This document shows, in pieces, positions 12,198 to 64,000 of a DNA stretch of 64,000 nucleotides (the stretch's first letter is position 1; each line of letters starts with the position of its first letter). Origin of the DNA: a virus (lineage: Duplodnaviria > Caudoviricetes); the IMG/VR virus record IMGVR_UViG_3300042997_000757, positions 1-64,000 of that record, one strand, 5' to 3'. The position numbers and the translations under genes were made by a program. The notes under the pieces are model-generated. The model was not told where the DNA came from. It ran no database searches and was given only the letters and a program-made list of their open reading frames with translations.

Positions 12198-12605
12198 TTA
12201 GTCTCGTTCATGAAGGTAGGTTTCATCTTCACGGTGTACATGTCCCGGTAGGCGGTCAGATTGTGCTTCTGGGTCATTGACAGACTCTGTATAGGTCACA
12301 GGAACCATCCATGAGGGGTCAATATCATGTGCGGCGGCAATACGGTGAGCGCCATTGATCAATGTTGTCTGCCCACGACTTCTACTTAAACGAATAGGGT
12401 TAACCATACCCTCTTTGCGAAGACTTTTATGCAAACCTATGGCTTGCGCCTCGTCCCCTTTGCGGTTCCAGAAGGCTTCTTCAGAGGGATGCCCAGATCT
12501 AGTGACATCTTTAGTGGTCATTTCTAGGTCTGACCCTTCAAGTTCTTCACGAAGCATACGCACAGGCATGAACAGTTGTCCGTTAAGGTGATGCCATGTA
12601 GCCAT
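12198..12605 (-). CDS. ParB/Srx-like domain protein
   Basis: LRKEGMVNPI..LINGAHRIAAA; paralog of 10081-10518. Confidence 0.7.
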   Translation of the reverse strand: MATWHHLNGQLFMPVRMLREELEGSDLEMTTKDVTRSGHPSEEAFWNRKGDEAQAIGLHKSLRKEGMVNPIRLSRSRGQTTLINGAHRIAAAHDIDPSWMVPVTYTESVNDPEAQSDRLPGHVHREDETYLHERD

Positions 12606-12715
12606 ACACCCAGTATAGGGCTATTTGGTGCGATTTTCAGGGTAACCCATTGTTGGAATAGGTCTATTGCGTCATTTTTTCGTGTTGTCGCTGACTCGAC
12701 CCTACCCCCCACCCC

Positions 12716-13492
12716 TGTGACGAACGTCACTTAACCATGGGGGGGTGCCTTTCGTCACACCTCGGCGCCTGCACCGTGGGTGCCTCGCCCCCCGTGGCGC
12801 CCTGAGCGCCCCCCAGTGCCCCGTGTGACCTCCGATGGCATGGTTATATGTCACACCCCCCCTCTGTGGCTTGACTGGAGGGGAAATTTGTGCGCAATTA
12901 CGAAAGCCTTATGTTATAAGGGTTTCCCGAGGTCTGAATTTCCCTACTACATGGCGCCACCCTTTGTCAAGTCATAGCGAAATAGGGCGAAAGCCTTATG
13001 GCACAAGGGGTTGAGGGGTGTTGTGACGAACGTCACGTACCTCAAGCCCTTTAAAATAGCGGATATGCCTTTTTATTGGCGCCTAAGGGGGGTTTCCCTC
13101 TGATATTGACTCGTTATCCCCGAGGAGGGGGTAGATCGCTGAGAACGGCGTACAGGGCTGTCTCAGGGGCAAACAGATTATTTAAAGGAAATGTGTGTTT
13201 TCGCCCCTAGAAATGGGGCTATGTGACGAACGACACACACAGGAGGGCGTACGGGGTAGGTATTCCCACTACCTCCCAGCCCCCAGTACCAATGTTGCAC
13301 CTGAGCACCACACATCAGGCGTAGCACCCCCTGTCTCCCCTCCTGTCTCCCTTGGTGAATCCATGGGAGGTCTGTCGGTTTGGCGCCCTTTTCTTCGCCC
13401 ATAAAGCCCTCGGAGCCTTATTCCGTACGGGTTTGAGCCATTTCCAGCGCATACCTCTTATATGCACTTATGCATATGTGACGAAGGTCACA
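12716..13492. promoter_or_regulatory. Five CRP-type operator sites (TGTGA-CGAAnG-TCACA-like)
   Basis: 12716-12731, 12744-12759 (reverse), 13022-13037, 13222-13237, 13477-13492 (perfect consensus). Confidence 0.65.
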
Positions 13493-13545
13493 CCCATGGA
13501 TGCATCCACAATGCGCATTTAATCCATCAGCCGTGCCTACAATGG

Positions 13546-13945
13546 CGCTGGAGGCACATATCCCTCCAGCGGTTGACACCGCTCCTCGGTCAATTAATTG
13601 TTAGGCGCCACGAACGGCAGGCATCGCTCCCGAGGAGATCCGCAAGCAACAGAGGTGAAGGCAACACGGCAAAGTGCTGTGATAACGCTTGCGAAATACT
13701 CCGACCCCTTAGACGACGGATGACCGCAGGAAAGCACACAGCGCCCCGTGGGTGGAGCAACCACCGCTAACAATTCAAGCCTGTCTCAGTGGCAACTGAG
13801 GCTGATCGGCGCTCACATAAAAAGAGCGCCCCAACGCATACCTGCACTTCTCTTCGGATGAGAACTTCTCGGGCAACCCCGAGATGTCAGAGCAACACTG
13901 AGCGCAGGTTCTACGCCTTTGGCGTTTTACAACAAGCAATTAATT
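13546..13945 (+). ncRNA. Large structured non-coding RNA or leader of unknown class
   Basis: About ten helices found by eye, GCAA/UUCG-type loops, G-U pairs on + strand; TACAAT at 13538-13543 just upstream. Confidence 0.65.
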
Positions 13946-13964
13946 CTCTTGAAAGGGGAACGCA

Positions 13965-14975
13965 ATGTCCGCACCAACCATCAACCTTGAAGCCCTCACT
14001 CCTGTTGAGCATGACCTGCTCTACTGCGAACGGCTCATCCTTCTCTCCAACGTCCGCTGGAACCATAAATGTTCATCTGAGAACGTCGTGCGCTACTTCG
14101 GCAAGGACGTCTACTTGCCAACGGGCGAATTTTCCTACGGTCGTGAACGTCACTCATCGGTGTACATCGCACCGAACACAGTGGTTGAGCCAACACACCT
14201 CAGTGAGGCTGTGGTTCTCACCGCTGATGAGGCTGTGCGTCTCTACGAGTTAGGCGTGGCTTGCCACAAGTCGTACCTCGCTGAGTCACTTGCTGAAACC
14301 ATCGTCCAGTTCAAAAAGGACGTGAAGACACTGGCATGGGCTGAGGCGCTCGTCGCTGACTGCGAACTTGAGTACAGCCGACGCCAGTGGGCACGCTTTT
14401 ATCTAGTGACGTCGTCTGACGGTCACATCCACAAGTCAACGTGGTGCTCCACATGCAACAAGGGTCAGTACGCCACCTCGTTCGCCTTGGTGCCTTACCT
14501 GAGTGGTGCAAGCGTCGCTGACGCTGTCGCAGACCTCGGGTGCGCATTGTGCTCGGTGTGTTTCCCCGATGCCCCTGTTGAATCCAAGGAGCAGGTCAAG
14601 ATCAGCGCTCGTGTTGCACTGGTGCTCGCAGAGCGTGGTGTGGAGGCATTCCAAGAGGCACGAGCCAAGGCTCAGGCTGACGCACAAAAGCGTGCCAGCG
14701 ACCGCTGTGAAGGCAGTGGCACTGAGTCTGCAAGAGGCGAGCGCTACGGCTACGCCTGCACGGTGTGTGGCAACACTCAGCGCAACGCTGGCAAGGTGCG
14801 TGCACATCGTCGTCCTCGGTTCTACGCAGTCAAGGAAAACTGGCAGGGGTACAACGACGGCTGGTGGAACGGCACCGACTGGGCACCAAGCACCAAGAAG
14901 TTGGCATTGTCCAGCAGAGAAGAAGCACAAGCCATCGTGGAGGCTCACGGTGGTGACCGAGTCCGCTCGGAGTAA
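13965..14975 (+). CDS. Early hypothetical protein with Cys/His metal-binding motifs
   Basis: GHIHKSTWCSTC, LCSVCFP, CTVCG; RBS GAAAGGGG. Confidence 0.75.
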   Translation: MSAPTINLEALTPVEHDLLYCERLILLSNVRWNHKCSSENVVRYFGKDVYLPTGEFSYGRERHSSVYIAPNTVVEPTHLSEAVVLTADEAVRLYELGVACHKSYLAESLAETIVQFKKDVKTLAWAEALVADCELEYSRRQWARFYLVTSSDGHIHKSTWCSTCNKGQYATSFALVPYLSGASVADAVADLGCALCSVCFPDAPVESKEQVKISARVALVLAERGVEAFQEARAKAQADAQKRASDRCEGSGTESARGERYGYACTVCGNTQRNAGKVRAHRRPRFYAVKENWQGYNDGWWNGTDWAPSTKKLALSSREEAQAIVEAHGGDRVRSE

Positions 14976-14981
14976 TCAACG

Positions 14982-15055
14982 GCATCAGCGCTTCGGCGCT
15001 GGTGCTCACAGAGGGCATCGGGTTCACGCTCGGTGCCTTCTGTGAGCATTCGCTC
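14982..15055 (+). ncRNA. Three-hairpin intergenic element, copy A
   Basis: GCATCAGCGC-TTCG-GCGCTGGTGC; ~17-19-bp second stem; GAGC-ATTC-GCTC. Confidence 0.7.
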
Positions 15056-15088
15056 AACCAACCATTCTCTTGAAAGGGGAAATAAAAA

Positions 15089-15661
15089 ATGAAAACCATT
15101 GAGATCACATGGAAAGCATTCGGTAGACCAACCACCGCCGTTTTCCAATACGACACCGCACTGGATGACCTCGCAATCTGCGCTAAGGCGTTCCGTGAGA
15201 CGAACCTGTATGAAGGCTTCTTGTGGGCATCACTGCAAGCGCAGTTGCCTGAAGAGCGCACACACACGGCGCTGTCGGTCGGTGACGAGGTCACCATTGA
15301 CGACAACACATACGAGTGCCGTGGCGCAGGCTGGAGCAAGGTGGAAGACATTCCACATCGTTGGTGTCACATATGCGAGAACTTTCTCACTGAGTGGAAC
15401 TTGGCGCCTGTCGGGTGCAGTGACGCTCTCAACCGCAAGCGTGTCTATGCGGACGGGGTGTACTTGTGCGACGACTGCTACGACCACTGGTGCACCGAGA
15501 ATGACATCCAGCCCGAAGGCTTCATTGAGCCTGCTACGGCTGTTCAAGAAGACGTGCAGACAGTCCTCAACTGGTTGCCACAAGGCTTCCCCGAGGCTGA
15601 CATCGCCTACGACGCACTTAACCGCTTGGCTGAGGCTCTCGGTCTCAAGCCCTACGTATAA
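15089..15661 (+). CDS. Early hypothetical protein (Zn finger)
   Basis: HTALSVGDEV; CHIC..CDDC; RBS GAAAGGGG. Confidence 0.75.
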   Translation: MKTIEITWKAFGRPTTAVFQYDTALDDLAICAKAFRETNLYEGFLWASLQAQLPEERTHTALSVGDEVTIDDNTYECRGAGWSKVEDIPHRWCHICENFLTEWNLAPVGCSDALNRKRVYADGVYLCDDCYDHWCTENDIQPEGFIEPATAVQEDVQTVLNWLPQGFPEADIAYDALNRLAEALGLKPYV

Positions 15662-15689
15662 CCAACCCAACCGACCACTGGAGGTCAAC

Positions 15690-15914
15690 ATGTACAACAT
15701 TCAACTCACCTACTCAAACACACGCCAAGTCAAGTACCTGAAAGCGCACCTGTTGCGTGGAGGCAGAATCGTCTCCACTCGTTGGCAACAGAGTGCACGC
15801 AGGTTCAAGTCTGAAGCAGAGGCGCAAGAGTTCATCAACAAGGTCAGCCCGTATTTTCACGGTACGTGGACGGCTGTCCCATACACACCCATCAAGCAAG
15901 CAAGCAACGCCTAG
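15690..15914 (+). CDS. Early hypothetical protein; paralog of N-half of 15927-16448
   Basis: GGAGG RBS; MYNIQL..ARRFKSEAEA..GTWTAVP. Confidence 0.7.
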   Translation: MYNIQLTYSNTRQVKYLKAHLLRGGRIVSTRWQQSARRFKSEAEAQEFINKVSPYFHGTWTAVPYTPIKQASNA

Positions 15915-15926
15915 GAGGCACACATC

Positions 15927-16448
15927 ATGAAGTACAACATTCAATTCGTATACACAGGAACACGCCACGACGGCACTTTTTATCTTGCCAACACTGGAGA
16001 CGCTGTGGTGAGAGCATCCACTACACCGCATCAAGATATTGCTAAGAGGTTTGCCAGTGAAGAGGAGGCTCTTGCTTTTGCAAAACGGCATACCAGTAGC
16101 GAAAAGTACAACCCGTTTAGTGTCGGCACATGGACAGTCGTCCCAGCACCTACGAGGTACACAACATCAATAAAAATTGAAACCACCACAAAAGTTGCCT
16201 ACGGCACCGAGTGCGTCTACCTCAAGTACGACGTTTTCACTGCCGAAGAATTGCCATGGCAATGGAGCCAGTTGTCATTGGACGAGAAATACGACCACGT
16301 CAACAACTACTGCCACTGGCACTCAGGTGAGTCTGACATCAGTGGTCAGAATGATTACTGGCTGGAGAACAACCCACAAGAGCACGGCAACCAAACTGAG
16401 GTCGTCATAGAAGTAGTTGAGACATACCGATTAGAGGAGGAAATTTAA
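15927..16448 (+). CDS. Early hypothetical protein
   Basis: TAGGAGG RBS; MKYNIQF..AKRFASEEEA..GTWTVVP. Confidence 0.75.
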   Translation: MKYNIQFVYTGTRHDGTFYLANTGDAVVRASTTPHQDIAKRFASEEEALAFAKRHTSSEKYNPFSVGTWTVVPAPTRYTTSIKIETTTKVAYGTECVYLKYDVFTAEELPWQWSQLSLDEKYDHVNNYCHWHSGESDISGQNDYWLENNPQEHGNQTEVVIEVVETYRLEEEI

Positions 16449-17171
16449 GTGTCTGCATCAACCATCACCGTCAAGCAACAGTCATTTGTGCGCTCGCTTT
16501 TACTGGAGCGCTTAGATGCACTTGAGATCACCGACCTTGACGAGTACATCAAGGCACAGTCCATCAACACCCTCACGGGTCAAGGTGCGAGCAAACTCAT
16601 TGAGGCTTTGAAGAGCATCCCTTGCTCCAAGAAGTCCGAGCATGCACACCTTCCCGAGGGGCGTGTCATCGCCAACCGATACGGCAACAAGTGCACCCTG
16701 TGCAACTCGTACGTGGAGGCTGGCGACGGCTGGGCAGTTCAGACCAGCGCAGGCTGGCGCACCTTCCACAGCGCTGGTCAGTGCGTCACAGTTGACGTCA
16801 GTGCCCCGAGCATTGAGGTCGAGAGTGGCAAGACCTATCGCCTTGAAGACGGCACCATCGCTGTTGCGTACACCACACAGAATGGTCGCCTTGCTTCACG
16901 TCGTCTCATCATTGATGAGGACGGCACAGGGCACCTTGAGTACTGGCAAGGTGGCGTCGCCAAGATCAAGGCGTACGGCGCTCTGCTCACGCAGGAGGAG
17001 GCGTCACGCATTGGTCGCCTGCATCGCTTCTGCGTCTCGTGCTGTCGTGACCTCACCGACGACCGCTCGTTGTCTGCTGGCTACGGTCAGACCTGCGCCT
17101 CTAACAATGGCTGGTGGTACCCCAGCCTCAAGGAGGCGAAAGAAATACTTCAGCGTGACATCACGCTCTGA
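16449..17171 (+). CDS. DUF6011-like Zn-binding domain protein
   Basis: C-terminal CVSCCRDLTDDRS..AGYGQTCA. Confidence 0.65.
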   Translation: MSASTITVKQQSFVRSLLLERLDALEITDLDEYIKAQSINTLTGQGASKLIEALKSIPCSKKSEHAHLPEGRVIANRYGNKCTLCNSYVEAGDGWAVQTSAGWRTFHSAGQCVTVDVSAPSIEVESGKTYRLEDGTIAVAYTTQNGRLASRRLIIDEDGTGHLEYWQGGVAKIKAYGALLTQEEASRIGRLHRFCVSCCRDLTDDRSLSAGYGQTCASNNGWWYPSLKEAKEILQRDITL

Positions 17172-17245
17172 GATCTAGGGGCGTCACTCCCCCGAGACAC
17201 GTCACCTGCTACTGCTCGGCAGGTGCGTGAGTTAAATGGGCAGGA

Positions 17246-17318
17246 GCGTCACCACTTCGGTGGTGGCGTCCTCAGAGGTCATCAGCGTCCTGCTGGTGGC
17301 TTCTGAGGGCGTAAGCCC
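17246..17318 (+). ncRNA. Three-hairpin intergenic element, copy B
   Basis: GCGTCACCAC-TTCG-GTGGTGGCGT; 17-bp second stem; GGGC-GTAA-GCCC. Confidence 0.7.
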
Positions 17319-17357
17319 GAGCACCAACCCAAACCATCAAGCCTTAGGAGGCACACA

Positions 17358-18944
17358 ATGAATGCACACCGCTCCACCCTTGACTCGTTGCTCACGCAAT
17401 TGCCACGAGTCGCCAACGCCATTGTCATTGATCAAGATCGTGCGAACCTCTCAGGTGCGCATGATGCTGACCTTGACTTTGACCTATCACTGCCACTGCT
17501 CCCGTACCAACGTGCTGGCGTCAAGTACATCCTTGAGCACAAGCATGAGGGCATCGGTCACCGTGCACTGCTCGGTGATGAGGCTGGTTTAGGTAAGACA
17601 GCGCAATTAATCGCTGTGGCACTCCATGCGAAGCGCAACGGCAAGCGCTCGCTCATCGTGGTGCCACCATCGCTTCGTGAGAACTGGCGCCGTGAGTTGT
17701 TGAAGTTCACTGCTGGCGAGTTGTCAGTTGAAGTCATCGCAGGTGCCAAGCCATACAAGTTGAGCAACGCTGACGTCATTGTCATCGGTGATGCAACGCT
17801 CGTCTCGTGGGCTGTAGCGCTCGGCAAGGTTGGCTTCGGCTCCTTGCTGGTTGATGAGTCACACCGTGCCAAGAACCCTCGTGCACAGCGCACCAAGGCT
17901 CTACAGGCTCTTGCGTTGACCATTGACAAGGATGGCTACATCGTCCTCGCTTCAGGCACTCCATGCCTCAACAAGCCACTAGAACTTGTCGCACAGTTAG
18001 ACATACTCGGTGTGCTCGCTCCAGTGTTCGGCTCTGCTGGCTCGTTCAAGTTTCGCTACTGCGATCCACAGCCAGTCAACATCGGACGTCGCATTGTCTA
18101 CACATACAACGGTGCGAGCAACACCGCTGAGTTGCACGACAAGTTGCGTGGCACGGTGTACATCCGACGTCGCAAGTTGGACGTGCTCACTGAGTTGCCA
18201 CCAAAGCGTCGTGCTCAACTGGCTATCGCATTGAGTGATGCGACACTGCGTGAGTACAACCGCATTGAGGCAGACTTCCTCGCTTGGGTATTTGACAAGG
18301 GTGGACGTGAAGCAGTGCTCAAGGCATCCAATGCCGAGACCATCACACGCCTCACAGCGCTCTTGCAGGAACTTGGCAAGGCAAAGGTGGAGGCAGGAAT
18401 TGAGCATGTTGAGAGCCTCATTGACGGCGACCAGCCTGTTGTGGTGTTCGCTCACCACCGTGCAGTCATTGACGCATTCATCGCTGAGTGCGACAAGCGT
18501 GCCGAGACAGATCCACGCTGGCGTGCGGTCAAGGTTGTCGGTGGTCTTGGTGATGAAGCCAAGCAAAAGGCTGTAGACGCTTTCCGCTCGGGTGAAGCCA
18601 ACATCTTCGTTGGCAACTACCAAGCCTCAGGTGTCGGTCTCACGCTCACCTCCAGTGGCGACAAAGCATGCACCCAGTGGGTGTCGCTTCAACTGCCATG
18701 GGAGCCAAGCACACTCAGCCAAGCAGAAGATCGCATTCACCGCATCGGTCAGACCGAGTCGGTCACCTGCTGGCACATCACAGCCGTCAAGAAGGACTCC
18801 AGCGAGACGCTGGACGGTCGCTTGTATGCACTGCTCAACCACAAGAGTGAAGTCGTCTCCAGCGTGCTGGATGGCTTCGCTAGTGACCTCGGTGCAGAGG
18901 CTGGTTCAATCATCGCTTCCCTACTTGAAGAGTGGGTCGGCTAA
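17358..18944 (+). CDS. SNF2/HARP-like SF2 helicase (early region)
   Basis: DEAGLGKT, DESH, SGTP, QAEDRIHRIGQ. Confidence 0.9.
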   Translation: MNAHRSTLDSLLTQLPRVANAIVIDQDRANLSGAHDADLDFDLSLPLLPYQRAGVKYILEHKHEGIGHRALLGDEAGLGKTAQLIAVALHAKRNGKRSLIVVPPSLRENWRRELLKFTAGELSVEVIAGAKPYKLSNADVIVIGDATLVSWAVALGKVGFGSLLVDESHRAKNPRAQRTKALQALALTIDKDGYIVLASGTPCLNKPLELVAQLDILGVLAPVFGSAGSFKFRYCDPQPVNIGRRIVYTYNGASNTAELHDKLRGTVYIRRRKLDVLTELPPKRRAQLAIALSDATLREYNRIEADFLAWVFDKGGREAVLKASNAETITRLTALLQELGKAKVEAGIEHVESLIDGDQPVVVFAHHRAVIDAFIAECDKRAETDPRWRAVKVVGGLGDEAKQKAVDAFRSGEANIFVGNYQASGVGLTLTSSGDKACTQWVSLQLPWEPSTLSQAEDRIHRIGQTESVTCWHITAVKKDSSETLDGRLYALLNHKSEVVSSVLDGFASDLGAEAGSIIASLLEEWVG

Positions 18945-18965
18945 CAATCTGAGGTGGTGCTCAGG

Positions 18966-19059
18966 ACGTCACAGAGGCAACTCTGTGGCGTGCCATGGGC
19001 ACTGCGGTGTGGGTCTTCCCCTTTCACAACACATCGCAGTGCTCATGGGACGCAAGTCC
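18966..19059 (+). ncRNA. Three-hairpin element, copy C; loop antisense to the TGAAAGGGGAA RBS
   Basis: ACGTCACAGAG-GCAA-CTCTGTGGCGT; 19-bp stem with loop TTCCCCTTTCA (19016-19026); GGAC-GCAA-GTCC. Confidence 0.7.
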
Positions 19060-19096
19060 AAGCAACCAACTACTAATGCCTTAGGAGGCACACATC

Positions 19097-19477
19097 ATGA
19101 AGACCCATGTACTAATCACAATCACACATCCCGACGACAGCCTTTCAAGGAGCCTCGTTGACTTCGCCGTTAGTAGCATCTTTGATGCCATCGGCGGAAA
19201 CACTGAAGAAGGCTGGGGTGTCACCACGTCCAGTCCGAAAGCACTACAGATCAAAGAACTCGCACTGGCTGTGGCATTGCGCTACCACCTGTCCGACTTT
19301 GACGGTGACAAAACATCCGACGAGACGTTCTCCGCTATCGGGGAGAGTGAAGACATCGTGGTGTGGGAGCCATTTGAAAGATGGGAAAGTTACGAGATCA
19401 CCAATTCAGTATGGAATCTCGCCCACGATATTGAGACAACATTTAATGAAGCCCTAGGTTTGGAGGAATCAGAATGA
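19097..19477 (+). CDS. Early hypothetical protein
   Basis: TTAGGAGG RBS; acidic 126-aa ORF. Confidence 0.7.
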   Translation: MKTHVLITITHPDDSLSRSLVDFAVSSIFDAIGGNTEEGWGVTTSSPKALQIKELALAVALRYHLSDFDGDKTSDETFSAIGESEDIVVWEPFERWESYEITNSVWNLAHDIETTFNEALGLEESE

Positions 19478-19656
19478 AATACACAATTGAAGTTACTGAA
19501 ACAATCAACCACTCATACGAAGTGGAGGCTGGATCGGAAGAGGAAGCGTTAGAAATTTACTACTCGTACGACGACGACCAGTTGAAAGACCTTGATCTTG
19601 ACGGGCAATCAACATGGGATACATCGCCATGGGACATATCAACGGAGGAATCATAA
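19474..19656 (+). CDS. Small DpnD/PcfM-like protein
   Basis: MKYTIEVTE..YEVEAGSEEEA. Confidence 0.6.
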   Translation: MKYTIEVTETINHSYEVEAGSEEEALEIYYSYDDDQLKDLDLDGQSTWDTSPWDISTEES

Positions 19657-19817
19657 TGAAGTACACACTCACCTACGAGAACGTGATCCATCACCGCCAT
19701 GAAGTGGAGGCTGGATCATTAGAAGAAGCACGCAGACTGTTTGACACAAACGAATCAGTATGTGTGGACACACAAGAAACATGGAACACCACCGACATAG
19801 AGGAAGTAAAACAATGA
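19656..19817 (+). CDS. Small protein, tandem paralog of 19474-19656
   Basis: MKYTLTYE..HEVEAGSLEEA; GGAGG RBS, TAATG coupling. Confidence 0.65.
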   Translation: MKYTLTYENVIHHRHEVEAGSLEEARRLFDTNESVCVDTQETWNTTDIEEVKQ

Positions 19818-20077
19818 GCGCTACACACACACATTACTTTGTTGTCTCGTACAACTCAGCAACCAGCAAATGGGAATGGGATACCGAAGCAGAAGAACTT
19901 CATTTCCACGAAGGCACCGTCGTCCACAACGAGACCAACGAGTGGGGTTACGCCTACCTCGGTGACGGTGAGTACATAGACAACGAGGACGAACTGTCCT
20001 CACAACTTGGCAACGCAATTGACTTGTTGAATTGCGGAATCATCCCATCAGACAGAATAATTAATGGAGGTATATAA
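19814..20077 (+). CDS. Early hypothetical protein
   Basis: ATGA overlap with previous gene. Confidence 0.65.
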   Translation: MSATHTHYFVVSYNSATSKWEWDTEAEELHFHEGTVVHNETNEWGYAYLGDGEYIDNEDELSSQLGNAIDLLNCGIIPSDRIINGGI

Positions 20078-20078
20078 A

Positions 20079-20423
20079 ATGAGTGAACTCATCGGATATT
20101 TTGGGGTTGACAGTGGGCAGATCATTATCGGTGATCCTTGCTACCTAGACCAGTTCATCACGGAGGAGTTGTTCAGCGCCGACCTGCCACAGCCTTACCC
20201 GTACTCTTACAACGGTGCGTGCTCTGCAACGTGCTCTAAGAAGGGTGCTGGTGTGCTTGCTAATGGCAATGCAATCGCTGTGTCTACTGGCTACGGAGAT
20301 GGTTCTTATCCCGTCTACATTGAGCGTGACCACAACGGTCGGATCATCGAGATCACGATCTCATTTGATGGCTCACACGAGACCGACGAAGACGAATACG
20401 AAACCGACGAAGACGAATACTGA
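20079..20423 (+). CDS. DUF4241-like protein
   Basis: GVDSGQIIIGDPCY...STGYGDGSYPVY. Confidence 0.65.
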   Translation: MSELIGYFGVDSGQIIIGDPCYLDQFITEELFSADLPQPYPYSYNGACSATCSKKGAGVLANGNAIAVSTGYGDGSYPVYIERDHNGRIIEITISFDGSHETDEDEYETDEDEY

Positions 20424-20438
20424 GCAATCAACCACGGG

Positions 20439-20533
20439 GCATCACGGGCGAGAGTCCGTGGTGCGCTCAGGGTGCATGGGGCTTTTGCCTCCTAAGTTCC
20501 AGTCCCCATGCACTCTGAGGGCACTTACTGCCC
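20439..20533 (+). ncRNA. Three-hairpin element, copy D; loop antisense to the CTTAGGAGGCA RBS
   Basis: GCATCACGGGC-GAGA-GTCCGTGGTGC; 16-bp stem with loop TGCCTCCTAAG (20486-20496); GGGCA-CTTAC-TGCCC. Confidence 0.7.
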
Positions 20534-20574
20534 GAGCACCAATTAACCAACCAACAACGACCTAGGAGGTCACA

Positions 20575-20907
20575 GTGAAAACATCAACCCTTGAAGACAT
20601 CCTTCAACACAAGACAGTGCTTGTTAAGCATGCACGAAAAATAATTAATGCAGATACCTACTGCAACGACATTGATGCGTGGGAGTCACTCATCATTGAA
20701 GACCAAGCCTTTGACTTCAACGTGTTCATATGGGAAGAAGACAACGGAGACGAAGTCACGCACATCAGCGTGTACCCAGTTGAGTTCAAAGACTCCCAAG
20801 AGTATGGCGATACCGACTACAGCACGTACTTACGACTGGTCACATTCAATCCCAAGACAGGCAAGATCACCGACGTATCAAACAACTCCGTGGAGGAAAA
20901 ACAATGA
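20575..20907 (+). CDS. Early hypothetical protein
   Basis: TAGGAGG RBS, GTG start. Confidence 0.7.
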   Translation: MKTSTLEDILQHKTVLVKHARKIINADTYCNDIDAWESLIIEDQAFDFNVFIWEEDNGDEVTHISVYPVEFKDSQEYGDTDYSTYLRLVTFNPKTGKITDVSNNSVEEKQ

Positions 20908-21419
20908 AGAAGACAGCGCTAGACAAACTTAAAAATGGAGACATCGTCTCTCGTAAATATCGTGGAACCATCACTCGCCACGTTGTGACATCACGCACCA
21001 ATTCAGGTACGCACTTTTGGGTGCGAGACCTCAAGTGGGGCGATGATGGCTACTACGACGAGAACCACGACCTCACCGAGCCAAAGTGGTTTGCTGTGGA
21101 ATACATCAAGCGTGTTGAAGAGGAAGAAGTCGTGGCACGAGGTCAATCACAAACCATCGGCGCTTGGGTATGGGTCATATGGAATGACTCCTACAAGCCC
21201 GAGAGCCAGTACATCTCATTCGGCACTGAAGTGTACGAGGGCGAAGACGTCATCTCTGACTCCTTTGGTATCGGAGACGATCAGATCTTCTACTACGCCA
21301 CTGAGCAAGAGTGGTTTGACTTGAATGACGGCATTGAACACAACGATGGCTGGAAGATTGACCTATCAAGAATTAATTACAACATCGCAATCATTATCCA
21401 AGAAGGAGCACTGCAATGA
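20904..21419 (+). CDS. Early hypothetical protein
   Basis: GGAGG RBS, ATGA overlap. Confidence 0.7.
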   Translation: MKKTALDKLKNGDIVSRKYRGTITRHVVTSRTNSGTHFWVRDLKWGDDGYYDENHDLTEPKWFAVEYIKRVEEEEVVARGQSQTIGAWVWVIWNDSYKPESQYISFGTEVYEGEDVISDSFGIGDDQIFYYATEQEWFDLNDGIEHNDGWKIDLSRINYNIAIIIQEGALQ

Positions 21420-21709
21420 ATACCTATGAGAAGACAACCCATTTCCTAGAGCAGTTAGATATCAACGCACTGTCACAGAGCGCAGTGCTCAGTGCAGTCG
21501 CTGACTTCTTTGAACTGGTCATCTGTCCGCACGACAGGCAAGAAGCAGAGAACGTGGCTGGGAGGGCGCTCACTGAAGAAGAGTGGGCGACCCTTCAGAT
21601 CGACATCTACTGGCTCTCTCTTGGCTGGTCAACCGAGGCAGATGTCTTGTCCATCGCAGAAGCGTTGAACAAGCAAGGCATCTCCAGTTCCTATGTACCA
21701 CCCTTTTGA
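21416..21709 (+). CDS. Early hypothetical protein
   Basis: AAGGAG RBS, ATGA overlap. Confidence 0.7.
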   Translation: MNTYEKTTHFLEQLDINALSQSAVLSAVADFFELVICPHDRQEAENVAGRALTEEEWATLQIDIYWLSLGWSTEADVLSIAEALNKQGISSSYVPPF

Positions 21710-21745
21710 TAGATCACTAACCACTCAATGACCAAGGAGGTCAAC

Positions 21746-22324
21746 ATGAATACCGAAGTAGACATTGATGCTCTTGAAGAGCACCTGTGCGTTGAATGCA
21801 AAGAGACAGTAGACCCTGAAGGCAACGACGACAGTCGCTGGTCATCCGTCAAGGAGGACTACGTCTGTTACTCGTGCTATGAGAGTGACATCCAGTCATG
21901 CTCAACCATCCACCTCATTGAAGGCGACCTCGTAGTGAAGATCTACGTTGGCGACCTTGACATCTTCAATGAGTACGGAGACCCCGTTGACGGAGGTCTC
22001 AGGATCAGGCGTGAGTGGGTATCCAGCGATATATGGCGTGGTTACCACAACACAGTCATCGCTGGCTGGGTTGACGTGCTCAGTGGCTGGACGACAGGTG
22101 GCTGGGGTGACCCAGTTGCTGACCGCAAGGCAAACTTCAATGAGTGGGCTGAGGCTTTACTCACCCAAGAGATATATCCACCCTGTTCAGTTGCTATCGT
22201 GACTGACCCAACATCCAACCTGTTTTCAACGGCGATCACTGTTCTCGTAAAAGAGAGAGACGTTAAGTCTTTCCGAGAATGGCTCTCCGACGAATACGAC
22301 GACCTCAATTCATCACTTAGTTAG
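21746..22324 (+). CDS. Early hypothetical protein with N-terminal Zn finger
   Basis: CVEC..CYSC; AAGGAGG RBS before ATG 21746. Confidence 0.7.
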   Translation: MNTEVDIDALEEHLCVECKETVDPEGNDDSRWSSVKEDYVCYSCYESDIQSCSTIHLIEGDLVVKIYVGDLDIFNEYGDPVDGGLRIRREWVSSDIWRGYHNTVIAGWVDVLSGWTTGGWGDPVADRKANFNEWAEALLTQEIYPPCSVAIVTDPTSNLFSTAITVLVKERDVKSFREWLSDEYDDLNSSLS

Positions 22325-22334
22325 GAAAAACAAA

Positions 22335-22586
22335 ATGTCAGAACCAATCAACCAACCACCATTGTGGTGTCGCAACTCTACTTGCCCTGCCACTCACGAA
22401 GCCTTTGATGATGAAGGCGTATGTCAATCATGCGAGACGCACAACATTCTGCGTGAATGGAATATCACTATTCAATTCCCAGTGTTGCGTGCGTACACAG
22501 AAGCCGAGGCGCTCGCACGTTTCATACATGCTGTTGGCACGGACAGCAGAGACATACTCCACCACATCCATGCAGAAAGGGTATAG
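22335..22586 (+). CDS. Early hypothetical protein
   Basis: Cys pairs; in operon. Confidence 0.6.
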   Translation: MSEPINQPPLWCRNSTCPATHEAFDDEGVCQSCETHNILREWNITIQFPVLRAYTEAEALARFIHAVGTDSRDILHHIHAERV

Positions 22587-22588
22587 CC

Positions 22589-23044
22589 ATGAACAACCTG
22601 TTAAATATCAATATCGTCAAGACCGAGGTAGCAACACTGCCATACATCTTGGAGTTCACTAACGTCAATAATTCCCGATCCGAGAAGTACGCCTTTGAGA
22701 ATTGGGACGGCGTGGTGGAGTTCATACAAGATCAGGGGCACTGGTGGCTCAACAATGTAGACGTCAGTCCTTACACCAAGGCGTACTACCGTGGGCGCCT
22801 CAGCGCCTTCTATGACGCCGTTGATGGATGGTACTGCCCGTCACCTCTCTCGGGTGAATGGGCTGGGGAGTCCATCCCTGAGTTGTTGGGCGATCTCATC
22901 AGGCAGGCAGAAGCCACCAGCGACGATGAGTTTGAAGACATAGACCCCAATGAGAAGTCCAGTGCTGTGCTTGACGCATACATCGCTGGCTACGACACAT
23001 ACTTTGTGAAGCATGCTCCCGACCTCATCGAGGTTGAAGCGTGA
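22589..23044 (+). CDS. Early hypothetical protein
   Basis: GAAAGGG RBS before ATG 22589; PLSGEWAGES motif. Confidence 0.65.
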   Translation: MNNLLNINIVKTEVATLPYILEFTNVNNSRSEKYAFENWDGVVEFIQDQGHWWLNNVDVSPYTKAYYRGRLSAFYDAVDGWYCPSPLSGEWAGESIPELLGDLIRQAEATSDDEFEDIDPNEKSSAVLDAYIAGYDTYFVKHAPDLIEVEA

Positions 23045-23208
23045 ACACAATTGAATTCACCAACTGCATTTGGTGCGAGCAACCAGTAGACGGCATCCCA
23101 CATGCAGGTGTGGATGTCAACACCACGCTCGGGCGTGTGTTCGGTTATGTATGCCGAGCATGCGACCGTGCATTCTCAGACCAACCAACGTCCAAGGAGG
23201 ACATTTAA
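23041..23208 (+). CDS. Small Zn-finger protein (55 aa)
   Basis: Manual translation: CIWC...CRAC; GTGA overlap. Confidence 0.55.
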   Translation: MNTIEFTNCIWCEQPVDGIPHAGVDVNTTLGRVFGYVCRACDRAFSDQPTSKEDI

Positions 23209-23209
23209 C

Positions 23210-23482
23210 ATGGGTTACCAAACAGCACTCGGCATTGCCGAGACCGACATCAGCCTTGAGCAACAACTCTCATGGCACTTCACCACCAACTGCTACCCAC
23301 CAGTATCAACACTGATGATTCCACTTGCTGTTGAAGCAATAGACCTTGCCAATGAAGACCTATGGGATGAATACATCTCGTGCCCTGAGGGCGTGACATA
23401 CAGAGGCAGGACGTTAGTTAGTGCCTCAGAAGTTATTGAACATCTTTACCTTTCCGCATTTATTACACAGGAGGAAGAATAA
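23210..23482 (+). CDS. Early hypothetical protein
   Basis: AAGGAGG RBS; WHFTTNCYPPV. Confidence 0.7.
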   Translation: MGYQTALGIAETDISLEQQLSWHFTTNCYPPVSTLMIPLAVEAIDLANEDLWDEYISCPEGVTYRGRTLVSASEVIEHLYLSAFITQEEE

Positions 23483-23715
23483 TGAAAGTCACAGACTGGA
23501 GCAGGTGGCAACGTACGAAAGCACTCACTGCTGGAGCGTTGTTCGCTATCGGAATCATATTGATCGGTGGGCTGGAAGGCGTTGACTTTCCACCCACTAC
23601 CTCATGGGGACTGTTGTGTGGGATCTTCTCTGTGATCCTTTTCAAGAACGTGCTACGCCATGACCAACGCATCAACCCTGACCGATACATCGTTGAAGAA
23701 GAGGAGTGGCAATAA
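23482..23715 (+). CDS. Small two-TM membrane protein
   Basis: Two hydrophobic segments; AGGAGG RBS. Confidence 0.65.
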   Translation: MKVTDWSRWQRTKALTAGALFAIGIILIGGLEGVDFPPTTSWGLLCGIFSVILFKNVLRHDQRINPDRYIVEEEEWQ

Positions 23716-24173
23716 TGGACGCATATCAACAAAAGCAATGGGAAGCCATCAATGCTGTAGTCGAAGCAGGGGGTGGAGTCATGGAACTCTTGAAAGACCC
23801 CATCAAGGTAGAGGTGCTTGATACCCCACAGGCAATTTTCAAGGCAGGTGCGAGCACCAAAGAGGCGCATGGCAAGACTTGGATAATTCCCCAACGGGAC
23901 TTACCCGAGTACTTGGAGCGAGAACTCCTTGCCCGTGGACAGAAGAGGCACGACTACTACTTCATCGCCGTGCGTGAACCAATCGGTGGTCAGGCTGGTG
24001 GTGGTGGGAACATCCAGTTCATCTGTAATCCCTACGCCCACGACGACGGGGTTTTCTTCCGTGTCACCGTCGGCTGTAGGCACACCATGGAAGGTACCCA
24101 ACTGGGTAACTGCTACTGGTCATACAAATGCACCAAATGTGACTACCACTACAAAGTGGATTCAGGCGATTAA
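23715..24173 (+). CDS. Hypothetical protein with C-terminal Zn ribbon
   Basis: GCRH..GNC...CTKC. Confidence 0.65.
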   Translation: MDAYQQKQWEAINAVVEAGGGVMELLKDPIKVEVLDTPQAIFKAGASTKEAHGKTWIIPQRDLPEYLERELLARGQKRHDYYFIAVREPIGGQAGGGGNIQFICNPYAHDDGVFFRVTVGCRHTMEGTQLGNCYWSYKCTKCDYHYKVDSGD

Positions 24174-24182
24174 TTAATTAGT

Positions 24183-24212
24183 TTGCAATATCCGTATTTA
24201 CGGGGATAGATT
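24183..24212 (+). promoter_or_regulatory. Sigma70/SigA-like promoter
   Basis: TTGCAA-18 nt-TAGATT upstream of the DUF932 gene. Confidence 0.5.
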
Positions 24213-24258
24213 AATCCTCGTAACTCAACCAATCAACCAACCAAAGAAAGAGAATACA

Positions 24259-25299
24259 ATGTCCGCAGAATCAGCAGAGGTGCTTAATACCTTCCAATTA
24301 ATTGGATTCACTGACCCGACCTATGGTCGTGGCAATGCATGGCACAACAACCCCGTCTTGCGTCAGCAACTCGGTATTGAAGACAACCACTATGCACACG
24401 CCATCCCAGTAGACGACGTCCTGCGTCGTCTCTTCAACTGGGAAGCCATTGAAGCGCCAGTGTTCGTAGGTGTCCCACACAATGGTGGCACTCGTTACAT
24501 CGCTGACCCTGACCGCAAGGCAATCGTGCGCAGTGATGACGACACCGTCTTCAATGTGTTCAAGTCGGGGTACCAAGTCCACTCATACAAGAAGTGGCTC
24601 TTGGACACCGTGTCCAACATCATTGACGATGACAACCTCGCTATCGGTACCGCAGGTCTCTTGCGCCGTGGTGGCAAGGCATACGTCACGGTGGAGTTGC
24701 CCGACACGGTCAAGACTCCGTCAGGCTTCAATGTCCGCCCACACTTGCTCGCATGCACCTCGCATGATGGCACGCTGTCAACCACCTACAAGGCAATTGC
24801 CACCATCGTGGTGTGCGACAACACCCTTGCTGGTGCTCTCGGTGAATCCACCGCACAGCACAAGGTACGTCACAGCAAGCACAGCATCGGTCGCTTGCAG
24901 AACGTGCGTGATGCTCTTGGCATCGTGCATGAGTTCACTGATGACCTCGTGGCTGAGATTGAGCGCCTGTCCTCACAGGTGGTCACTGACAACGAGTTCC
25001 AAGCCATCATTGAGCAACTGATCCCTGTTGACCTCAGCATTGAGGTTCGCCCACAGGTGCAGGCTCGTGTGCAGAACAAGCGTGAACTCATCCGCCACAT
25101 CTACAAGACAGATGAGCGTGTGAAGGACTGGACAGGCACCAAGTTGGGTGTGCTTCAAGCATTCAACACCTACCAGCATCACTTTGCAGGTACCGACGTC
25201 TCACGCTCGGAGCGCAATGCTTTGAACGCCATCATCGGCAAGGCAGAAGCCAGCGACCGTCTTGTGCTCAACACCATTGACCAACTGGTGTCTGCATGA
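24259..25299 (+). CDS. DUF932 family (phage/plasmid-like TIGR03299) protein
   Basis: TAGLLRRG, LLACTSHDGT, VVCDNTL, KVRHSK. Confidence 0.85.
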   Translation: MSAESAEVLNTFQLIGFTDPTYGRGNAWHNNPVLRQQLGIEDNHYAHAIPVDDVLRRLFNWEAIEAPVFVGVPHNGGTRYIADPDRKAIVRSDDDTVFNVFKSGYQVHSYKKWLLDTVSNIIDDDNLAIGTAGLLRRGGKAYVTVELPDTVKTPSGFNVRPHLLACTSHDGTLSTTYKAIATIVVCDNTLAGALGESTAQHKVRHSKHSIGRLQNVRDALGIVHEFTDDLVAEIERLSSQVVTDNEFQAIIEQLIPVDLSIEVRPQVQARVQNKRELIRHIYKTDERVKDWTGTKLGVLQAFNTYQHHFAGTDVSRSERNALNAIIGKAEASDRLVLNTIDQLVSA

Positions 25300-25598
25300 C
25301 CGATCAGCACCGTGGGGAGGGGGAAACCTCTCCCCACACGCTGGAAGTTTGGTTACCCACTGTGAAGTACATTGACCCTGATAGCGACTGGAGAGAACAC
25401 GCCAACTGCCGTCAAAATGGGAGCACAATGTTCTTTGCTTCTCGTAGCATTAAACAGCAAAAGGAAGCCATCAGCGTCTGCACCGCTTGTGAAGTGCGCC
25501 TCCAGTGCTTGAACTTTGCGATACGTAATGAAGAGAAAAATGGCATATGGGGAGGGGTTAATTTCCACTCCTCCAAGCGCAAAAAAGTTAACAATTAA
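25296..25598 (+). CDS. WhiB-family transcription factor (true start may be later)
   Basis: WREHANC..FF..CTAC.V..QC...GIWGG. Confidence 0.85.
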   Translation: MTDQHRGEGETSPHTLEVWLPTVKYIDPDSDWREHANCRQNGSTMFFASRSIKQQKEAISVCTACEVRLQCLNFAIRNEEKNGIWGGVNFHSSKRKKVNN

Positions 25599-25648
25599 AA
25601 AGACCCACCTTCACTGCGTCATTGCGGTGAGGGTGGGTCTTTTTTTTT
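25598..25648. terminator. Bidirectional intrinsic terminator at convergence point
   Basis: AAAAGACCCACC...GGTGGGTCTTTTTTTTT. Confidence 0.85.
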
Positions 25649-25772
25649 GCTTTATCCCTTGTCGGTGATCTCTTCCAGCAACTTTGGCTTGTCGAGGTTC
25701 TTCTTGCACCTGTGCGATGGTGGGCTGGAGGGGTTAACGAACAAGGTCACCTTCTGTCCACATGACTTGCAT

Positions 25773-26003
25773 TCATAAATTCGTTTGGTCATCTCCGAGT
25801 ACCTTCCATGGTCGCCACACTGCAAGAAAAGACATTATCTCCGACTTATCCCAAATAGGTGTTGAAGCGAGAACTTTTACTGGATCAGGAAATTCCGGCA
25901 TCTGCCGAAGAGAATGTATGCGTTGCTTGCTCACTCCCAGCACAGAGGCAACCTCGGCGGTGCCAAGGATGGCATCTACTGGTAGTGCTGTATTGTTCAT
26001 CAT
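25773..26003 (-). CDS. AlpA/excisionase-like HTH protein
   Basis: GTAEVASVLGVSKQRI..FPDP...PIW. Confidence 0.75.
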   Translation of the reverse strand: MMNNTALPVDAILGTAEVASVLGVSKQRIHSLRQMPEFPDPVKVLASTPIWDKSEIMSFLAVWRPWKVLGDDQTNL

Positions 26004-26512
26004 TTTATTTTAGATGCTTTTTGTGCTTTATGTTTCTTTAGCCATACCTCGGGGTGCAGGTAGCGGTTGTTTTTAATACAGCCCCAACCAAAATACGAAA
26101 CTGTTCCCTGATCTTTGTAACCAAAGACCGTGATCCTGTTTGCAATGGTTATCTGTTCTGCTTTGGTGGCTTTGTTCGGTACTGGTGCAAAGTCAGTACC
26201 ACCAAAAGTTCTCCACGTACCAACGTAGATACCTAGCCCTCCTGCCCAGCGACCACCGTCTTTCCATCCACGTCTAGTGGCGTCTGTTTCACAAACAGCG
26301 ACGTCTTCCCAATATTTCACTGGCATTACTTTGCGACTCTTTATTTGCAATTCAAGTTCGGTGTAAACGATTGCAGGCTGTTTCTCTATGGATTGCTCCT
26401 TTACAAGTACCTCTATTGGTGAGGGTGTGTTTGGTCTTGATTGCTCGTGTACGTGTGTGTTAGTGGATGGGACAAAAAGTGTGGTGATTAAACCGATCTT
26501 TATGAGTAACAA
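26000..26512 (-). CDS. Resuscitation-promoting-factor (Rpf)-like lytic transglycosylase, secreted
   Basis: WEDVAVCET..GGLGI..TWRTFGGTDFAP..ATKAEQI; TTG start after GAAAGAGG. Confidence 0.8.
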   Translation of the reverse strand: MLLIKIGLITTLFVPSTNTHVHEQSRPNTPSPIEVLVKEQSIEKQPAIVYTELELQIKSRKVMPVKYWEDVAVCETDATRRGWKDGGRWAGGLGIYVGTWRTFGGTDFAPVPNKATKAEQITIANRITVFGYKDQGTVSYFGWGCIKNNRYLHPEVWLKKHKAQKASKIK

Positions 26513-49419: not shown

Positions 49420-49469
49420 TTATTGCTCCATTGTTTGCGACTGTGGAATGACGATGATACACTGCTTTT

Positions 49470-49595
49470 GCTGTCATGTACACCTACTTGAGTGTAAGTA
49501 CGGTGTGATAGTACCTCCATTGGTTGGTCCCTTTGGTTGGTTGCTCAGGTAAATGGCTGGATATGGCAGAAACTGTATCCAGCCATTTGCTGTTT
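49470..49595 (+). ncRNA. Putative sRNA antisense to early-gene leaders
   Basis: TGn-TACACT at 49455-49463; 5' hairpin; unpaired CCTCCATTGGTTGGT..CTTTGGTTGGTTG; 3' long hairpin 49546-49592 with G-U pairs on + strand. Confidence 0.6.
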
Positions 49596-49612
49596 ATAGG
49601 GTAAAATAGGGC

Positions 49613-63622: not shown

Positions 63623-64000
63623 TTAGGCGTTCTCGCCAGCCCATTGGCTGACGTTGATAACAATAAATTCGGCTGGGCTAAGTAATGACACACCAATTTC
63701 AACGTTGACAAAACCATCGCCAATAGTTGTAGAGGTGTTGTTAGTGTCATCACAAATAATGTAAAAGGCTTCACTAGCGCTTGATCCTTTGAGGTTTCCG
63801 GTTGCCCAGAAATTGGTAAGAGTTTGTGAAAGGGTGTTGTTAATTTTTGCCCACAACCGTGAATCGTTTGGTTCAAATACGGCAAATGCAGTTTGTGCTT
63901 CAACAATTGATTTAACAAAGTTCAGTGAGCGACGAATTGTGATGTACTTGTCTGGGCGATTTGCTGCCAATGTGCGAGCACCATTGATCACGTAAATACC
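63623..64000 (-). CDS. Contractile tail sheath (C-terminal part)
   Basis: GARTL, YI.IRR, FEPND..LW, PAEFI. Confidence 0.92.
   Translation of the reverse strand, partial: GIYVINGARTLAANRPDKYITIRRSLNFVKSIVEAQTAFAVFEPNDSRLWAKINNTLSQTLTNFWATGNLKGSSASEAFYIICDDTNNTSTTIGDGFVNVEIGVSLLSPAEFIVINVSQWAGENA

Follow-up and report, generated by a model that had tools for sequence, protein, structure and literature searches.

The DNA analysed here, called the window, comprises positions 1-64,000 of a 94.9-kb virus record in IMG/VR that is rated 100% complete (IMGVR_UViG_3300042997_000757). The subject is a set of four intergenic RNA elements, A to D, spaced along a + strand gene block of the window (13965 to ~25600) that we infer to be the early operon, of ~12 kb, of a phage. 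We give about even chances to the view that these elements are conserved punctuation modules with enlarged loops of anti-Shine-Dalgarno (anti-SD) type, that the perfect matches of 11 nucleotides (nt) between two of the loops and upstream ribosome-binding sites (RBSs) are specific to this lineage, and that the arrangement is not the ordered timer proposed in a sequence-only reading. If the loops act on RNA, the action would be a generic masking of Shine-Dalgarno (SD) sites. The four elements, with their first, second and third hairpins denoted H1, H2 and H3, are as follows.

14981..15055, + strand: element A, three-hairpin module; H1 14981-15006 (UUCG loop), H2 15008-15043 (4-nt loop), H3 15044-15055; fold -56.1 kcal/mol, z=-7.8

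17248..17325, + strand: element B, three-hairpin module; H2 17268-17310 with the 5-nt loop GUCCU

18964..19059, + strand: element C; H1 18970-18987 (GCAA loop), H2 18988-19053, 18-nt loop 19012-19029 holding TTCCCCTTTCA

20437..20533, + strand: element D; H1 20443-20460 (GAGA loop), H2 20461-20524, 22-nt apical region 20482-20503 holding TGCCTCCTAAG, then H3 and a closing helix to 20533

All four share one architecture, namely a small hairpin with a UUCG, GCAA or GAGA loop, an H2 of 16-21 bp, a small third hairpin, an unstructured A/C-rich linker and finally a strong SD held in a mini-hairpin of 4-5 bp. The arms of H2 lie at 18988-19011 and 19030-19053 in C and at 20461-20481 and 20504-20524 in D. 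The loops of A and B had been described as small, and so they are, although they measure 4 and 5 nt and not the 5-6 nt given for them. Fold z-scores range from -4.4 to -7.8, and a sliding fold places strong folds on the + strand only; C reaches -61.0 kcal/mol on that strand vs -49.4 on the other, and D -62.1 vs -50.6, so that the + strand folds better by about 11.5 kcal/mol. Moreover, the imperfect stem positions of A-D are G-U pairs on the + strand. In Rfam scans of the 64-kb window, with the anti-SD-loop families RsaE, RNAIII and ar14/CcsR included, no match was found at gathering thresholds and only generic hairpin matches appeared at E<=5.

Conservation was followed through about 30 related contigs, many of them 92-97 kb long, which were retrieved with a 15-mer at the 5' side of element C, a helicase search and the control-region box CTTAACCATGGGGGG. 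Their helicases are 37-63% identical to the one encoded here, or 100% identical in a near-identical fragment (G001). A metagenome scan with the helicase alignment used patterns that proved too generic, and the useful relatives from it were L100 and L119 only. The module recurs throughout the related contigs, with orthologues of B in G002, G006, G007, L100 and L119 and an orthologue of A, carrying compensatory changes, in G002. A 19-mer at the 5' side of element C, CAATCTGAGGTGGTGCTCA, is conserved as well. Across four lineages, 37 pairs of element C are kept, 10 of the 37 by two-sided compensatory changes, while the H2 loop is hypervariable. Element C is a genuine conserved RNA structure, and the compensatory pairs stand together with the strand-specific fold.

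The elements would thus be copies of one conserved module that punctuates a long early + strand transcript (~13.9-25.6 kb). By analogy with the early mRNA of T7, they may act as processing or stability punctuation and present the next RBS, with processing of the RNase III type; the features of T7-type RNase III sites (an intergenic position, a stem of 16-21 bp and no U-tract) are consistent with what is seen here. They are not ordinary terminators, because they lack U-tracts and the true terminator of the operon has a U-run.

25597..25644, + strand: canonical intrinsic terminator, 20-bp stem and U-run with an A-run upstream; ends the + strand operon

This is the only strong terminator of the operon, and elements A-D are not among the terminator-like sites, none of them having the G+C-rich hairpin followed by a U-run of an intrinsic terminator.

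The RBSs that bear on loops C and D fall into two classes, listed here together with the RBS that directly follows element D. Gene starts are our own calls.

13943..13960, + strand: class-1 RBS hairpin, copy 1, 18-mer ATTCTCTTGAAAGGGGAA; TGAAAGGGGAA at 13950-13960, 4 nt before ATG 13965; 11-nt complement of loop C

15064..15081, + strand: class-1 RBS hairpin, copy 2, identical 18-mer ATTCTCTTGAAAGGGGAA; TGAAAGGGGAA at 15071-15081, 7 nt before ATG 15089; duplex with loop C -18.2 kcal/mol

15912..15920, + strand: class-2-like RBS TAGGAGGCA of the gene starting at 15927; 9-nt complement of loop D

17343..17353, + strand: class-2 RBS CTTAGGAGGCA of the SNF2-type helicase gene 17358-18944; duplex with loop D -20.1 kcal/mol

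19080..19090, + strand: class-2 RBS CTTAGGAGGCA of the gene starting at 19097; duplex with loop D -20.1 kcal/mol

20560..20569, + strand: RBS ACCTAGGAGG of the gene directly downstream of element D, GTG start 20575

Re-reading of the sequence bore out all the coordinates first given for these RBSs and for the loops. Loop C carries TTCCCCTTTCA at 19016-19026, the perfect 11-nt complement of class 1, loop D carries TGCCTCCTAAG at 20486-20496, the perfect 11-nt complement of class 2, and each class occurs twice upstream. The first class-1 copy folds into a weak 7-bp hairpin that masks its SD. A third RBS of G001 can pair with 10 nt of loop D in a different register, and elsewhere in the genome there is one chance 11-mer complement of loop C, at 63824.

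A match between a loop and an RBS could in principle arise at the DNA level, either as the relic of an inverted duplication or because the loops are themselves RBSs of small - strand genes. On the - strand loop D does read CTTAGGAGGCA, with an ATG 8 nt further on (10 nt from the end of AGGAGG) and a frame of 11 codons. That frame, however, is only 11 codons long and lies inside the stem, and the nearest - strand ATG to loop C is 19 nt away. Loop/RBS identity ends at exactly 11 nt in every case, with different and unrelated flanks, and the matches are therefore not remnants of a longer inverted duplication; the G-U pairs and the fold energies, for their part, mark the + strand RNA as the selected molecule. 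Both the duplication relic and the - strand micro-open reading frame were rejected on these grounds (the 11-nt limit, the 11-codon frame in the stem and the + strand folding), and an origin at the DNA level is extremely unlikely.

How surprising the matches are depends on what is held fixed. Shuffled loops reached a match of at least 11 nt to the 22 curated start regions of the operon with P=0.0016 for C and P=0.0037 for D, and to 82 candidate start regions with P=0.0047 and P=0.0072; the latter is a liberal set, independent of annotation, that was used since automatic start calling had missed the class-1 starts. When the anti-SD-like cores (CCCCTTT in C, CCTCC in D) were fixed and the remainder was shuffled, P rose to 0.024 for C and 0.04-0.05 for D, so the surprise lies mainly in the cores. 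What departs from chance is chiefly the presence of anti-SD-type cores in both of the large loops, of which there are only two; once this is granted, reaching 11 nt is no more than a mild surprise, and counting in the anti-SD composition of the loops takes away most of the statistical weight of the perfect matches.

The predicted energetics of the pairing are strong. When 138 start regions of the genome are ordered by duplex energy, the class-1 RBSs take the first and third places for loop C (-19.7 and -18.2 kcal/mol, median -8.1), and the class-2 RBSs share first place for loop D (-20.1 kcal/mol each, median -10.0). The large loops are also accessible, with a predicted opening cost of 0.6 and 1.8 kcal/mol for seeds that are 11-nt complements of their target RBSs, and the RBSs, in their weak mini-hairpins, would cost 4.0-6.7 kcal/mol to open. 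After these costs about -12 to -14 kcal/mol remains, a stronger pairing than the -10 to -12 kcal/mol that is predicted when these RBSs meet a generic 16S 3' tail, and the pairing with the loops is therefore, on these models, physically plausible. The potential of the loops to pair with upstream RBSs, as put forward in the sequence-only reading, is thus real, non-random and thermodynamically strong (duplex energies of -18 to -20 kcal/mol), and its statement that the loops match upstream RBSs better than their own also holds, loop D giving -20.1 kcal/mol with class 2 vs -15.3 with the RBS just downstream.

That downstream RBS suggests another possibility, a pseudoknot in cis, in which loop D would pair with its own SD (20560-20569, ~65 nt away) and gate translation until the hairpin is cleaved or melted. 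The two pair over 8 bp here, including one G-U, and the equivalent pairing in L100 is 7 bp plus 2 bp past one mismatch, with a maximum exact match of 7 nt; the position of D ahead of an orthologous gene is conserved, and the unstructured A/C-rich linker could serve as the connecting strand. Against this, the own RBS is a weaker partner at -15.3 kcal/mol and is costly to open (9.4 kcal/mol), loop C finds no such partner in the RBS that follows it, and any strong SD of the operon would pair equally well. We regard such a pseudoknot as distinctly unlikely.

The same pairing data also carry what favours an ordered RNA timer, in which loops C and D would be class-specific antisense seeds, C silencing the class-1 genes and D the class-2 genes as transcription proceeds or once the hairpins have been processed. 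Both of the only two large loops perfectly complement upstream RBSs over 11 nt, at shuffle P values of 0.002-0.007 per loop; the cognate RBSs are top-ranked among the 138 start regions, with net energies of -12 to -14 kcal/mol that are stronger than the predicted 16S pairing; and the third RBS in G001 fits loop D over 10 nt, if in a different register. What decides against it is the behaviour of the loops in relatives. The loop of element C reads as follows.

This phage and G001: GGUCUUCCCCUUUCACAA

G004, G005 and G006: UUUCCCCCUUUC

G002 and G003: ACACCCCCCCGUGC

G007 and G008: the hexaloop GGGACA

In the three other lineages the C loop thus differs, with sizes from 6 nt to 14 nt, and has no RBS complement, the RBSs at the corresponding positions reading AAAGGAG, AAGGAG or CCTAGGAGG. 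For the C loops of G002, G004/6 and G007 and the D loop of L100/G018/G038, the best exact RBS complement is 6-7 nt, which is what shuffles give (P=0.67-0.93). The contigs of the G004 lineage end 3-4 kb upstream of C, with the first operon genes outside them, so that for this lineage the comparison covers the operon from that point on, and a query with the upstream gene of G006 retrieved G006 only.

Element D behaves differently, in that its loop is conserved and the RBS flanks did not follow. Outside its own lineage it was found only in L100, G018 and G038, whose helicases are ~48-51% identical; there the 5' arm of H2 is identical and the loop core GCCUCCUAAGUU invariant, the loop being UUCGCCUCCUAAGUUUU vs UUUGCCUCCUAAGUUCC here. 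The whole of D H2 (20461-20524; 6165-6235 in L100) is ~93% identical, although protein identity falls to 31% just downstream of it and a different gene lies upstream, and this retention beside diverged proteins points to a constraint on primary sequence or to a mobile cassette. When the neighbours of D (20079-20423 and 20575-20907) were used as queries they retrieved the near-identical fragment G001 only, and a scan with a 17-mer of the D stem gave the known D elements and one chance coding match only. RBSs in the L100/G018/G038 lineage read CCTGAGGAGG(C/T), so that the exact complement of the D loop is the 7-nt SD core.

Loops and RBSs, then, do not co-vary; in relatives the loops vary independently of the RBSs, and seed and target are not conserved as a pair. 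Because related phages do not keep the loop/RBS match, an ordered timer is unlikely, and other points add to this: the D loop is kept where RBS flanks differ, many unrelated viral contigs have kept the class-1 RBS motif but lack the loop, one loop acting in cis would face two or three cognate RBSs, the match has P=0.02-0.05 per loop with the cores fixed, and the window appears to hold a separate candidate trans-acting small RNA, with CCUCC and anti-linker sequence, at 49455-49595. Taken together, these make the class-specific cascade very unlikely. Of the earlier interpretation, the pairing potential, the anti-SD-type loops across the family and the conservation of the D loop survive, and the ordered class-specific shut-off is not supported.

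The candidate small RNA lies on the + strand at 49455-49600; it has ACCUCCA and two copies of the repeat UUGGUUGGU, with a terminator-like hairpin after them. At 49531-49543 it reads CTTTGGTTGGTTG, which exactly complements the linker CAACCAACCAAAG found at 24234-24246; several early RBSs are preceded by AACCAACC linkers. Judged from its sequence, it could provide a more conventional route to early-gene shut-off.

The class-1 motif has a wider history of its own. The 17-mer TTCTCTTGAAAGGGGAA, a weak hairpin masking an AAAGGGG SD, has 90 exact matches in IMG/VR; a start codon lies 4-5 nt downstream in 77 of 91 viral occurrences, and the matches span ~35 unrelated gene contexts in contigs of 30-71% G+C (loci L235-L324). 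About half of the viral copies precede one homologous gene of 205-228 aa. In 814 kb around the viral copies no hairpin loop with the complement was found, and the few TTCCCCTTT strings inspected near them looked like RBSs of genes on the opposite strand. Since the motif is widespread in viral contigs without a cognate loop, its conservation has nothing to do with loop C. Prokaryote genomes totalling 596 Gb hold 104 matches to the 17-mer, in very diverse taxa, vs ~70 expected by chance on our own estimate, and being so near the chance number these give no clue to the host.

What does extend across the family is the composition of the loops. The 27 related early operons yielded 149 distinct intergenic hairpins, with GNRA or UNCG loops in 39, C-runs of at least four in 19 and CCUCC in 4, so that C-runs or CCUCC together account for 23. 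The C-run loops include CCCCC, CCCCCA, UCCCCC and CUUCCCCC (for example in L094, L098, L100 and L214-L233), and the excess of C-run apical loops is strong and strand-specific. Of the two large loops, C falls in the C-run class, as a long example of it, and D in the CCUCC class. Anti-SD-type loop sequence is therefore a feature of the whole family, as this census shows, and the conservation of the D loop reaches a distant lineage (L100/G018/G038).

Within the punctuation reading, the apical loops of H2 in C and D, which are enlarged and C-rich or CCUCC-bearing, are complementary to G-rich SD sites in general, because the same signature recurs across the family. The two matches would then have separate origins: in D, a conserved loop would have met the lineage-specific RBS variant CTTAGGAGGCA, and in C, a variable C-rich loop would have met the widespread viral RBS hairpin TTCTCTTGAAAGGGGAA. 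Any action of the loops on RNA would most likely be that of generic SD-masking seeds, working in cis or as processed hairpins, with the strongest masking on the four cognate RBSs. Such a generic anti-SD role has precedent, because UCCC/C-rich loops are established SD-binding seeds; the unpaired loop motifs of this kind in Staphylococcus aureus RNAIII, RsaE/RoxS and other Rsa RNAs bind SDs and block 30S binding and initiation (PMC2790875). A bolder version, in which the family's early operons contain an embedded anti-SD network, with processed loops that titrate or mask strong early RBSs to give an RNA-only shut-off and with two loop/RBS classes in this lineage, is unlikely.

Several observations weigh against the punctuation reading with generic masking. 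The C loop of G007/G008 closes to the GGGACA hexaloop and has no anti-SD character. Loops of C5-C7 are poor partners for the GGAGG-type SDs of relatives, and among the RBSs of those relatives no matching G-run turned up, G-runs lying mainly in the upstream control/leader region; the C-run loops may therefore bind something else. RNase III-type processing is argued only by analogy. Finally, the two 11-nt matches together have a probability of ~1e-3 even when the cores are fixed, which leaves room for lineage-specific selection on the exact pairings, a point that we treat as secondary.

Some of this would fit loops that have no RNA-RNA function, being bound by protein or making tertiary contacts, so that the matches would be nothing but pyrimidine-rich loops meeting purine-rich RBSs. 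The conditional P of only 0.02-0.05 per loop, the chance 11-mer complement of loop C at 63824, the relatives without matches and the poor fit of C5 loops to GGAGG all agree with it. So does the primary-sequence conservation of the whole of D H2, stem included and without compensatory change, which is typical of protein recognition or of a mobile cassette. Yet both large loops have anti-SD-type cores, the strand-specific enrichment of C-runs and CCUCC (23/149) needs a cause, the joint conditional probability is ~1e-3, and SD pairing is the established role of such loops elsewhere (PMC2790875). An absence of any RNA-RNA function is on balance doubtful, though a possibility to be taken seriously.

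The phage itself is of roughly 95 kb and myovirus-like, and metagenomes are the sole source of the record. Its genome has a G+C content of 46% and carries most genes on the - strand, and it encodes a family-A DNA polymerase, baseplate proteins and a queuine-tRNA-ribosyltransferase-like protein. The + strand block has 52-56% G+C and strong SD sites, and encodes the SNF2-type helicase, a DUF6011 protein and numerous small open reading frames; in G+C it lies 6-10 points above the rest of the genome. A megablast search against GenBank phages gave no close relatives, and a protein search returned helicases only, at <32% identity. A scan for sigma-70-like promoters over 12300-26200 gave a single match vs 9.6 +/- 3.1 in shuffles and did not locate the operon promoter.

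Upstream of the operon, a divergent control region holds the box CTTAACCATGGGGGGG at 12731-12751, which occurs exactly in 33 IMG/VR contigs, many of them 92-97 kb long, and is a handy marker of this phage group. Over 10 nt the C loop of G002 is complementary to this box, quite possibly by chance. Next comes a leader RNA of ~400 nt, inside which a three-hairpin junction closed by CCTGC/GCAGG is seen at 13825-13910 (82960-83040 in G002), its hairpin stems differing between the window and G002 through compensatory changes. Further down the operon, G001 (L002) has one gene more than the window, placed between element C and its counterpart of the 19097 gene. Because the junctions of this gene fall inside a GCCTWAGGAGGCA RBS cassette (19080-19100 in the window), the arrangement suggests that genes are gained and lost by recombination at such cassettes.

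Should masking of RBSs by the loops prove real, the phage would have an operon whose translation is controlled by hairpins in its own intergenic spacers, a layout absent from Rfam and related in principle to the c4 RNA of P1 and to the C-rich-loop small RNAs of bacteria. Even without masking, three aids to the annotation of uncultured phages remain, namely the punctuation module, the excess of C-run loops and the 17-nt viral RBS hairpin.

Set beside known systems, elements A-D are a member of none of them, as they have no Rfam match and are not a separate small RNA gene. The early mRNA of T7 has intercistronic RNase III processing hairpins, R0.3-R1.3. Like these sites, A-D are repeated stable hairpins between early genes, without a U-tract and each followed by the next RBS. 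The T7 sites, however, are single hairpins with an internal loop, whereas A-D have three hairpins, perfect stems of 16-21 bp and C-rich loops.

In layout the nearer parallel is the c4 RNA of phages P1 and P7, which is reportedly an operon-embedded antisense RNA, cut from the transcript, whose loops pair over an RBS of its own operon. The remark in the sequence-only reading that it knew of no described phage system with this layout overlooks c4, an embedded antisense RNA that acts on an RBS of its own transcript. The likeness lies in antisense-type loops embedded in the same operon as the target RBSs; the difference is that c4 acts on a downstream gene (icd/ant), belongs to an immunity switch and is a single dedicated RNA, whereas A-D are a repeated intercistronic module. 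The Rfam scans of the window, to which the sequence comparison with c4 was limited, gave no similarity to it. The c4 antisense RNA of P1/P7 is credited to Citron and Schuster 1990 in a passage of PMC8201110.

T4 reaches early-gene shut-off by another route, in which the RegB endoribonuclease attacks SD sequences (GGAG) (PMC1702504, PMC3014915); RegB is a protein nuclease and A-D are RNA loops, so that the analogy is one of function only. The Cuckoo-type anti-SD RNAs of Alphaproteobacteria (the ar14/CcsR family) resemble A-D as hairpin arrays with C/U-rich anti-SD loops, but A-D have no Rfam match to them even at E<=5 and differ in architecture and genomic context. To the C-rich-loop small RNAs of low-GC Gram-positives (RNAIII, RsaE/RoxS) A-D have no sequence or Rfam relationship; those RNAs are trans-acting bacterial genes with their own promoter and terminator, whereas the loops here sit on intercistronic hairpins of a phage mRNA and their pairing is predicted. 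In the mode of action proposed for A-D these RNAs are nonetheless the closest of all, as both present an unpaired C-rich loop sequence complementary to G-rich SDs.

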